Of a DNA stretch of 64,000 nt, positions 34,686-36,585 are shown piece by piece; the stretch's first letter is position 1, and every line of letters begins with the position of its first letter. The stretch lies in assembly GCF_003334785.1 (NCBI RefSeq), contig NZ_QOWV01000002.1; one strand, given 5' to 3'. Origin of the DNA: Escherichia coli. GTDB taxonomy: Bacteria; Pseudomonadota; Gammaproteobacteria; Enterobacterales; Enterobacteriaceae. Both the position numbers and the translations under genes were made by a program. The notes below the pieces were generated by a model. It searched no databases and was not told the origin of the DNA. It saw only the letters and a list, made by a program, of their open reading frames with translations.

Positions 34686-34718
34686 TGTCTGTAAATCACG
34701 ACAATGGGTGGTTTGCCG

Positions 34719-34736
34719 TGTCGCTTTCTGGCGACA
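34719..34736. promoter_or_regulatory. GlrR (QseF) activator binding site, TGTC-N10-GACA
   Basis: TGTCGCTTTCTGGCGACA; bacterial enhancer-binding-protein type site about 180 bp upstream of the sigma54 promoter. Confidence 0.65.
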
Positions 34737-34781
34737 CTTAACTCATTGATTTTAATATTATCTAATAAGTTTATCTTAAGT

Positions 34782-34799
34782 TGTCTCTTTTTAGCGACA
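34782..34799. promoter_or_regulatory. GlrR (QseF) activator binding site, TGTC-N10-GACA
   Basis: TGTCTCTTTTTAGCGACA; second copy of the same motif, 63 bp from the first. Confidence 0.65.
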
Positions 34800-34888
34800 C
34801 AGTGGCTGATTTACATTCAAACAGCGGAGGAGACATAAACCCCTCAAAGCAACGTATAATCAGTACGTTACCAAACTATTTTCTTTAT

Positions 34889-34904
34889 TGGCACAGTTAC
34901 TGCA
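34889..34904 (+). promoter_or_regulatory. sigma54 (-24/-12) promoter of glmY, overlapping a sigma70 -10
   Basis: TGGCAC-AGTTA-CTGCA matches TGGCAC-N5-TTGCA; CATAAT -10-like hexamer overlaps; predicted +1 at 34916. Confidence 0.8.
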
Positions 34905-34915
34905 TAATAGTAACC

Positions 34916-35099
34916 AGTGGCTCATTCACCGACTTATGTCAGCCCCTTCGGGACGTGCTACATAAAATACGAATGACGCACAACAAGGTGCCTGCCGTCC
35001 AACTTCTGATATCAGCGTAGCTATATCAACCATCGGGCGAAACGTCGAGTTAGGCACCGCCTTATTCCATAACAAAGCCGGGTAATTCCCGGCTTTGTT
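34916..35099 (+). ncRNA. glmY: small RNA GlmY (regulator of glmS via GlmZ/RapZ)
   Basis: Begins AGTGGCTCATTCACCGACTTATGTCAGCCCCTTCGGGAC...; ends in an 11-bp stem-loop ACAAAGCCGGG/CCCGGCTTTGT; non-coding; sits between purL and glrK as known for glmY. Ends approximate. Confidence 0.8.
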
Positions 35100-35157
35100 G
35101 TATCTGAACTTCCCCTCGGTTAGCATCAGGCTATTCGCGTCTGACGAGAGTAACACC

Positions 35158-36585
35158 TTGAAACGCTGGCCCGTTTTTCCCCGCTCATTACGACAACTGG
35201 TAATGCTGGCATTTTTGCTGATTCTGCTGCCCCTGTTGGTGCTGGCATGGCAAGCCTGGCAAAGCCTGAATGCGCTTAGCGATCAGGCGGCGCTGGTTAA
35301 CCGCACTACGCTTATTGATGCCCGGCGCAGTGAAGCGATGACCAACGCGGCGCTGGAGATGGAGCGTAGTTACCGTCAGTATTGCGTGCTGGACGACCCA
35401 ACCCTGGCGAAGGTTTATCAAAGCCAGCGCAAGCGTTACAGCGAAATGCTCGATGCCCACGCAGGCGTGCTGCCGGACGATAAACTCTACCAGGCATTAC
35501 GTCAGGATTTGCACAATCTGGCTCAACTTCAGTGTAACAACAGCGGTCCCGATGCTGCCGCCGCCGCACGTCTTGAAGCCTTTGCCAGTGCCAATACCGA
35601 AATGGTACAGGCCACGCGCACAGTGGTGTTCTCTCGTGGGCAGCAGCTTCAGCGTGAAATCGCCGAACGTGGGCAATATTTTGGTTGGCAATCGCTGGTG
35701 CTATTTCTGGTGAGTCTGGTAATGGTACTGCTTTTCACGCGGATGATTATCGGGCCGGTGAAAAATATCGAGCGCATGATCAACCGTCTGGGGGAAGGGC
35801 GTTCTCTGGGCAATAGCGTCTCGTTCAATGGACCGAGCGAGTTACGCTCGGTTGGGCAACGTATTCTTTGGTTAAGTGAGCGCCTGTCATGGCTGGAATC
35901 CCAACGCCATCAATTTTTAAGACATTTATCTCATGAATTAAAAACGCCACTGGCGAGTATGCGCGAGGGCACTGAATTACTGGCTGACCAGGTTGTCGGG
36001 CCGCTTACGCCAGAGCAAAAAGAGGTGGTGAGCATTCTTGATAGCAGCAGCCGCAATTTGCAAAAACTGATCGAACAACTGCTTGATTACAACCGTAAAC
36101 AGGCGGACAGTGCGGTGGAACTGGAGAATGTTGAGTTAGCACCGCTGGTGGAGACAGTGGTTTCTGCTCATAGCCTGCCCGCACGGGCTAAAATGATGCA
36201 TACCGACGTCGATCTCAAAGCAACAGCTTGCCTGGCGGAGCCAATGCTGCTGATGAGCGTACTGGATAATCTTTACTCCAATGCGGTGCACTACGGGGCT
36301 GAATCCGGTAACATTTGCCTTCGCAGCAGTTTACATGGTGCGCGGGTTTATATTGATGTCATCAATACAGGCACGCCCATTCCGCAAGAGGAACGCGCCA
36401 TGATCTTCGAACCCTTTTTTCAGGGAAGCCACCAGCGAAAAGGGGCGGTGAAGGGCAGCGGTCTGGGATTAAGCATTGCCAGGGATTGTATTCGCCGTAT
36501 GCAAGGGGAACTGTATCTGGTCGACGAGAGCGGGCAAGACGTTTGTTTCCGCATTGAATTACCGTCGTCGAAAAACACGAAATAA
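35158..36585 (+). CDS. glrK: sensor histidine kinase GlrK (QseE)
   Basis: 475 aa from a TTG start (MKRWPVFPRSLRQLVMLAFLL...); two TM segments, HAMP, H-box (LSHELKTPL), ATPase domain. Track ORF starts 21 codons upstream at an ATG inside glmY. Confidence 0.85.
   Translation: MKRWPVFPRSLRQLVMLAFLLILLPLLVLAWQAWQSLNALSDQAALVNRTTLIDARRSEAMTNAALEMERSYRQYCVLDDPTLAKVYQSQRKRYSEMLDAHAGVLPDDKLYQALRQDLHNLAQLQCNNSGPDAAAAARLEAFASANTEMVQATRTVVFSRGQQLQREIAERGQYFGWQSLVLFLVSLVMVLLFTRMIIGPVKNIERMINRLGEGRSLGNSVSFNGPSELRSVGQRILWLSERLSWLESQRHQFLRHLSHELKTPLASMREGTELLADQVVGPLTPEQKEVVSILDSSSRNLQKLIEQLLDYNRKQADSAVELENVELAPLVETVVSAHSLPARAKMMHTDVDLKATACLAEPMLLMSVLDNLYSNAVHYGAESGNICLRSSLHGARVYIDVINTGTPIPQEERAMIFEPFFQGSHQRKGAVKGSGLGLSIARDCIRRMQGELYLVDESGQDVCFRIELPSSKNTK

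Follow-up and report, generated by a model that had tools for sequence, protein, structure and literature searches.

The control of glmS by GlmY, GlmZ and RapZ, and the shared-start sigma54/sigma70 promoters that are driven by GlrK/GlrR and IHF, have been in the published record since 2008-2011. GlmY is shortened from 184 to 148 nt, a step that takes off its whole terminator, and it acts as a decoy for RapZ (PMC4152352). Upstream of glmY, three TGTCN10GACA motifs are the activator binding sites (ABS) of GlrR (QseF), of which ABS1 is dispensable and less conserved, and ABS2 and ABS3 were reported to be essential; two IHF-like regions flank ABS3, and mutating the distal IHF site abolished the activity of the sigma54 promoter (PMC3045617). 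The same paper, restating Reichenbach 2009, has the sigma54 and sigma70 promoters of glmY begin at the same nucleotide, and cites that work for the activity of the overlapping sigma70 promoter; a -10 hexamer CATAAT that overlaps the -12 element is found only in a subset of genera (PMC3045617). Sigma54 ChIP-seq gave a strong peak at glmY (OS24), with the motif TTGGCACAGTTACTGCA (PMC4591121). For qseEGF, which includes the kinase gene glrK (qseE), a weak sigma70 promoter was described immediately downstream of glmY, from which transcription begins 25 bp ahead of the start codon (transcription start site, TSS), and the abundance of the kinase was reported to be very low (PMC6075780).

The locus considered here lies in a stretch of 64,000 nucleotides of Escherichia coli DNA (the window), and its purL-glrK spacer is the well-studied E. 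coli K-12 glmY locus with its published control elements, followed by glrK. Overall, we are almost certain that the evidence is best explained by a 557-bp spacer that contains glmY and all of its known control elements, a separate promoter for glrK, and a glrK start at the TTG at 35158; no observation speaks against it. The biology of the locus has already been published for exactly this sequence, and the window adds nothing to it; what the comparison does illustrate is that a real functional non-coding locus is recognisable from raw sequence, at a place that PGAP-annotated RefSeq E. coli genomes leave blank and where a longest-ORF track gives the neighbouring kinase gene a wrong start. For where the transcripts end, which promoters are used and where the protein begins, the text below relies on the annotation and the cited papers, and the steps of transcription, processing and mechanism are those of the literature; the sequence features are what we tested.

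Identity and Conservation of the Locus

Positions 34560-35260 of the window share 100% identity with E. coli K-12 MG1655. The window is oriented opposite to the numbering of NC_000913 (window position = 34916 + (2691340 - record position)), and the annotation of that record, mapped to the window, places the end of purL at 34600, glmY (b4441, 184 nt) at 34916-35099, and glrK (b2556, 475 aa) at 35158-36585. PGAP annotation of K-12 and other strains starts qseE/glrK at the same base as NC_000913, and leaves the spacer without any annotation; this probably accounts for the unannotated appearance of the spacer at first sight. Measured from the purL stop (34600) to the true glrK start (35158), the spacer is 557 bp long and not 500 bp, as had been noted in a first-pass annotation of this DNA; the accompanying statement that the spacer is not empty holds, all of the features that it named being in the sequence, at or next to where it had placed them. 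The intrinsic terminator of purL (34659-34685, forward strand), which was called by a terminator scan, has an 8-bp stem (AAGCTCCC/GGGAGCTT) and a T-run, and this T-run directly adjoins the first of the GlrR sites described below.

The region 34560-35260 was found in all of the complete E. coli genomes (5426 of 5426), in a single copy in nearly all of them. A total of 2451 genomes fell in the 90-95% identity band, which raised the suspicion that the 5′ end of glrK is unusually divergent within E. coli; this idea was rejected, because an 18-bp indel after 34632, shortly beyond the end of purL, accounts for most of the difference. Genome contigs were also scanned with the 14-base pattern GAGTNAGGCACCGCC, which matched at least 120 loci; among the matches listed, 15 were enterobacterial, and the others, from unrelated GC-rich genomes, matched by chance. 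One of the enterobacterial loci, from Pantoea (L052), gave no match in a search with the GlmY model and was left out, leaving 14 usable enterobacterial loci. In these 14 loci (among the matches listed), the order purL-glmY-glrK is kept together with a GlmY match; with E. coli added, they form the 15 sequences of alignment A1, which extends from Escherichia to Dickeya.

The GlmY Transcript and Its Terminator

According to both the window ORFs and the annotation, glmY lies between purL and glrK/qseE, with all three genes on one strand; its primary transcript (b4441, 184 nt) spans 34916-35099 (forward strand). The first-pass annotation had taken the small RNA in the spacer to be GlmY, with a search by the Rfam covariance model as the check. 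This search returned RF00128 (GlmY_tke1) at 34916-35063 (forward strand), covering the entire model (positions 1-163 of 163) and scoring 146 bits, where 33 is the gathering score (E-value 1.5e-32), and the GlmY model scored above its clan relative in this interval; together with the 100% identity to K-12 b4441, the match establishes the RNA as GlmY. A permissive Rfam scan (E<=1) of both strands of the spacer revealed no family besides GlmY. The match is 148 nt long, which equals the published size of the processed active form, in which two stem-loop domains are bound by RapZ (PMC4152352). The RNA has a minimum free energy of -67.2 kcal/mol, with a z-score of -5.0 relative to shuffled controls. 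The consensus structure calculated by RNAalifold for E. coli and the 14 other enterobacterial loci with a GlmY match contains 52 pairs, 11 of them with compensatory double changes (six of these in the terminator stem); the pairs in the body of the sRNA are mostly invariant, so they are uninformative either way on covariation.

The glmY hairpin is an ordinary intrinsic terminator (35069-35101, forward strand), consisting of the core GCCGGG-TAATT-CCCGGC, an A-rich run upstream, and the U-rich tail TTTGTTGTATCT. Twelve Watson-Crick pairs make up the stem (35071-35082 with 35088-35099), which grows to 14 pairs if one A-U and one U-G pair are included (35069-35082 with 35088-35101), and the hairpin has the loop TAATT and an energy of about -27 kcal/mol; the six compensated pairs are among these 14. 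The hairpin that had been noted as an 11-bp stem-loop at 35072-35098 is therefore real, but longer than it was thought to be. It had also been thought to lack a U-tract, which was missed because the tail was counted as stem. Next to the GC core (GCCGGG/CCCGGC) comes TTTGTTGTATCT, with 8 T in 12 positions, and the first part of this tail pairs with the upstream AACAAA. A similar effect apparently explains why a simple terminator scan overlooked this hairpin, since the scanner extends the stem into the U-tail first. The annotated 3′ end of glmY (35099) falls inside the U-rich tail. The suggestion that GlmY is processed for want of a U-tract has to be dropped as well, since trimming to 148 nt is a separate event, which removes the terminator as a whole (PMC4152352).

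Promoter and Activator Sites of glmY

The sigma54 promoter TGGCAC-N5-CTGCA (TGGCACAGTTACTGCA, with the spacer AGTTA) is located at 34889-34904 (forward strand). It has one mismatch to the consensus TGGCAC-N5-TTGCW, and places GG at -26/-25 and GC at -14/-13 relative to the transcription start, the A at 34916 (forward strand), which is the 5′ end of the Rfam match. TGGCA and TGCAT are invariant in 15 of the 15 sequences in A1, and the ChIP-seq motif cited above is identical to the window at 34888-34904. The sigma70 -10 hexamer CATAAT (34903-34908, forward strand, -13 to -8) overlaps the sigma54 -12 element (PMC3045617); the sequence elements of the overlapping sigma54/sigma70 promoter in the first-pass annotation are both present. 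CATAAT is kept in the Escherichia, Citrobacter, Enterobacter, Pluralibacter, Superficieibacter, and Dickeya loci, and is absent from Shimwellia, Enterobacter sp. R1, and Serratia. In the window the hexamer is present without a consensus -35, and the consensus scanner called no sigma70 promoter there. Applied to 34560-35300, this promoter/terminator scan returned no sigma70 promoter and only the purL terminator; for the sigma70 promoters of glmY and glrK the scan is uninformative, because both are weak.

Three matches to TGTC-N10-GACA, all on the forward strand, were found upstream of the promoter: the distal GlrR site 1 (TGTCTGTAAATCACGACA, 34686-34703), site 2 (TGTCGCTTTCTGGCGACA, 34719-34736), and site 3 (TGTCTCTTTTTAGCGACA, 34782-34799). 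Only two had been counted before; both of these (sites 2 and 3) are real, and the one that was left out, site 1, lies across the left edge of the interval then considered. Two exact matches to the IHF consensus WATCARNNNNTTR flank the third GlrR site, a distal one (AATCAATGAGTTA, 34739-34751, reverse strand) and a proximal one (AATCAGTACGTTA, 34858-34870, forward strand). The first-pass annotation had mentioned neither of the IHF sites.

The counts of the GlrR, IHF, and sigma54 motifs alone do not exceed chance: TGTC-N10-GACA was found three times vs. 1.0 expected (8 of 100 shuffles reach three), the IHF consensus five times vs. 3.9 expected, and the sigma54 pattern twice vs. 2.1 expected. The motifs are significant because of their clustering, their position relative to the Rfam-defined 5′ end, and their invariance across species. 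All three TGTC-N10-GACA matches fall within 114 bp, with none elsewhere in the 64-kb window, an arrangement for which the chance expectation is on the order of 1e-6 (an estimate based on about one match per 64 kb in the shuffles). In A1, the half-sites GTC and GAC of GlrR site 2 are invariant in all 15 sequences, as are GT and GAC of site 3, and site 1 is the least conserved of the three; the block TAAC..ATTGATT of IHF site 1 is conserved, and a CA and a T of IHF site 2 are invariant. In two other E. coli strains, natural polymorphisms are confined to degenerate N positions, namely those in ABS2, in IHF site 1, and in the sigma54 spacer. Judged by sequence, the features of the window agree with the published description point for point (PMC3045617), from which the binding of GlrR itself is taken.

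Promoter and Start Codon of glrK

The first-pass annotation described the sRNA terminator and the kinase start as tightly packed, which is correct but incomplete: the interval of 58 nt from the glmY 3′ end to the TTG also holds a weak sigma70 promoter and a 25-nt leader (PMC6075780). For this promoter (35098-35133, forward strand) we infer the -35 hexamer TTGTAT at 35098-35103 and the -10 hexamer TAGCAT at 35121-35126, separated by a 17-bp spacer and followed by the published TSS at about 35133 (PMC6075780). TAGCAT ends exactly 7 nt before 35133, and T35121, A35122, and T35126 are invariant in alignment A2; that the consensus scan did not call the promoter fits with its being weak. The putative -35 falls within the glmY terminator's U-rich tail. 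Not all of the loci share this arrangement, since in Shimwellia and Enterobacter sp. R1 an insertion of 23-26 nt lies between terminator and -10. In the leader, a weak Shine-Dalgarno-like GAGAG (35146-35150, forward strand), 7 nt upstream of the TTG, may serve in ribosome binding; in A2, its G35146 does not vary, and G35148 and A35149 hardly do.

It has to be considered whether glmY and glrK instead form one operon, the kinase being made mainly by read-through of a leaky terminator without a U-tract, so that the system would regulate itself. The gap between the two genes is short, and glmY-qseE-qseG-qseF of Proteus mirabilis is reported as an operon (PMC8745638); but the glmY terminator combines a strong GC core with a U-rich tail, lacZ fusions in E. 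coli K-12 with and without the whole glmY locus were equally low and were unchanged by deletion of qseF or qseG, RT-PCR found virtually no read-through (PMC6075780), and the two-component genes were described as independently transcribed (PMC3045617). We therefore consider a glmY-glrK operon very improbable in E. coli. The available part of PMC3903284, on EHEC, contains nothing relevant on glmY-qseE co-transcription.

Besides separate transcription, the reading that we prefer has the glrK (qseE/yfhK) coding sequence running from the TTG at 35158 to 36585 (forward strand), for a product of 475 aa, as annotated by both NC_000913 and PGAP. All 13 species compared have TTG at this position, and tblastn homology to E. 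coli GlrK begins with residue 1 in all 12 loci. Substitutions in codons 1-16 number 30, 6, and 86 at the first, second, and third codon positions, respectively; since this pattern starts at the TTG, coding begins there. The TTG start and the 475-aa product proposed by the first-pass annotation are upheld by the two annotations, by the conservation in 13 species, and by the TSS 25 bp upstream (PMC6075780); a literature search turned up no paper that explicitly mentions a TTG start for glrK. The first in-frame ATG (35203, Met16) would offer the preferred start codon, with the 15 TTG-proximal codons as a leader, and 10 of the 13 species have Met16. This start is nevertheless very unlikely, given the excess of third-position (86) over second-position (6) changes in codons 1-16, the homology from residue 1 in every tblastn match, the peptide KRW.FPRSLRQLV, which is kept from Escherichia to Dickeya, and residue 16 itself, for which Citrobacter sp. 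FP75, Serratia, and Dickeya have Thr, Val, or Ile.

The mechanical ORF opens farther upstream, at 35095, which is inside the 3′ arm of the glmY hairpin, as had been observed before, although the codon there is TTG and not the ATG that had been given for it; this ORF start is a longest-ORF artefact. In-frame stops are found 27-54 nt upstream of the conserved TTG in 4 of the 13 species (E. cloacae, E. asburiae, Enterobacter sp. Bisph1, and Shimwellia), which rules out an upstream extension of glrK, and the glmY-glrK spacer is poorly conserved, with indels that are not multiples of three. A 496-aa kinase translated from the TTG at 35095 (or 35098), with terminator and coding sequence truly overlapping, has next to no probability and is effectively refuted already: the ORF is open from 35095, and E. 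albertii and both Citrobacter loci likewise have TTGs 63 and 60 nt ahead of the annotated start (Superficieibacter has the one at -60), but these persist because they are part of the conserved terminator tail, the codon at 35095 has no preceding Shine-Dalgarno sequence and lies inside the terminator stem (about -27 kcal/mol), it is absent from the glrK mRNA because the published TSS lies downstream, with read-through from glmY virtually absent (PMC6075780), and NC_000913 and PGAP both use 35158.

A Model of the Locus

If the published mechanism is applied to these features, phosphorylated GlrR (QseF) would bind the three TGTC-N10-GACA sites, which precede the transcription start by 117-230 bp, and IHF would bend the DNA at the two sites flanking the third GlrR site, so that GlrR could activate sigma54 RNA polymerase at TGGCAC-N5-CTGCA. 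The weak sigma70 promoter, with its CATAAT overlapping the sigma54 -12 element, would start at the same A (34916) and provide basal expression. The 184-nt transcript would end at the intrinsic terminator (35069-35101), and trimming to the 148-nt form (34916-35063) would lead to the sequestration of RapZ; with RapZ sequestered, GlmZ would escape RNase E and activate glmS. The glrK gene would be transcribed separately, from the weak sigma70 promoter in the interval that separates the terminator from the gene (TSS about 35133), and the 475-aa kinase would be translated from the TTG at 35158.

The only points that look even mildly unpublished are the invariance of the glrK start and the embedding of its promoter. 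The weak TTG start is invariant in the eight enterobacterial genera compared, and in E. coli the likely -35 is embedded in the tail of the glmY terminator; either point would suit a kinase of very low abundance, as reported (PMC6075780). They could, tentatively, reflect selection for a very scarce kinase, and possibly interference at the glrK promoter by RNA polymerase that terminates at glmY, although we think this rather unlikely. As far as we found, such a reading of the invariant weak TTG and the embedded -35 is not spelled out in the literature consulted.

Comparison with Known Systems

The closest system is E. coli K-12 glmY itself (b4441, formerly sroF/tke1; RF00128), which is the same gene, with the same ends and neighbours and 100% identity; there is no difference between the two. 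GlmZ (Rfam RF00083, clan CL00011) is a homologous sRNA with a similar central stem-loop bound by RapZ. In many Enterobacteriaceae the glmZ promoter is, similar to that of glmY, a sigma54 promoter with three GlrR sites and IHF sites (PMC3045617), whereas E. coli glmZ has a sigma70 promoter only. The two RNAs also differ in action: GlmZ pairs with glmS and binds Hfq, whereas GlmY lacks the pairing region and acts as the RapZ decoy (PMC4152352). Other GlrR/QseF-dependent sigma54 promoters, such as rpoE P2 of E. coli, use the same activator and have TGT-N12-ACA upstream activating sequences (PMC6075780); they differ from the glmY promoter in the target gene, and the exact overlap of sigma54 and sigma70 promoters with a shared start was first described for glmY.

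Organization of the purL-glmY-glrK spacer

No feature is annotated in the spacer between purL and glrK (34,601-35,157) in the PGAP-annotated E. coli RefSeq genomes that we compared (loci L002, L123, and L124), and among the records examined, glmY is annotated only in the curated K-12 record, NC_000913. At the upstream side, the T-run of the purL terminator stops one base short of the first GlrR activator site (TGTC at 34,686; region 34,659-34,703); therefore the glmY enhancer abuts the 3′ end of purL. Many E. coli strains (for example, L123 and L124) carry an 18-bp insertion directly after 34,632, with the purL stop codon on one side and the purL terminator on the other, and this insertion explains the bulk of the lower-identity band among the E. 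coli genomes (2451 genomes at 90-95% identity over the spacer region).

At the downstream side, a putative glrK promoter spans 35,098-35,133. Its −35 element (TTGTAT) falls within the U-rich tail of the glmY terminator, whereas its −10 element (TAGCAT) occupies 35,121-35,126; this placement, predicted from the sequence, fits the published transcription start site, which lies 25 bp 5′ of the glrK start codon (PMC6075780). An insertion of 23-26 nt separates the glmY terminator from the glrK −10 element in Shimwellia (L122) and Enterobacter sp. R1 (L083). The spacer from glmY to glrK is far longer in Serratia silvae (331 nt; L065, 6,530-6,860) and Dickeya oryzae (253 nt; L085, 9,030-9,282, reverse strand) than in E. 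coli, in which it measures 94 nt from the processed end of GlmY; in each of these two species, a terminator of its own, bearing a plain T-run, lies immediately 3′ of the GlmY core.

The glrK/qseE gene has a weak start codon, TTG (35,158-35,160), that is unchanged in all 13 enterobacterial species compared (the window and loci L012, L017, L019, L023, L028, L035, L065, L068, L083, L085, L088, and L122). Serratia, Dickeya, and Enterobacter sp. R1 contain an additional in-frame ATG, 9 nt upstream of the conserved TTG, which might serve as the glrK start in its place in these species.

Other Rfam matches in the window

Further Rfam matches, each exceeding its own gathering score, were 5S rRNA (69-184), ES036 (11,910-11,952), AsrC, antisense to rseC (18,419-19,250, reverse strand), the rncO leader (22,033-22,247), the ohsC antitoxin sRNA (25,660-25,736, reverse strand), and naRNA4 (63,735-63,806); all six are consistent with the rrnG-to-glyA region of K-12.
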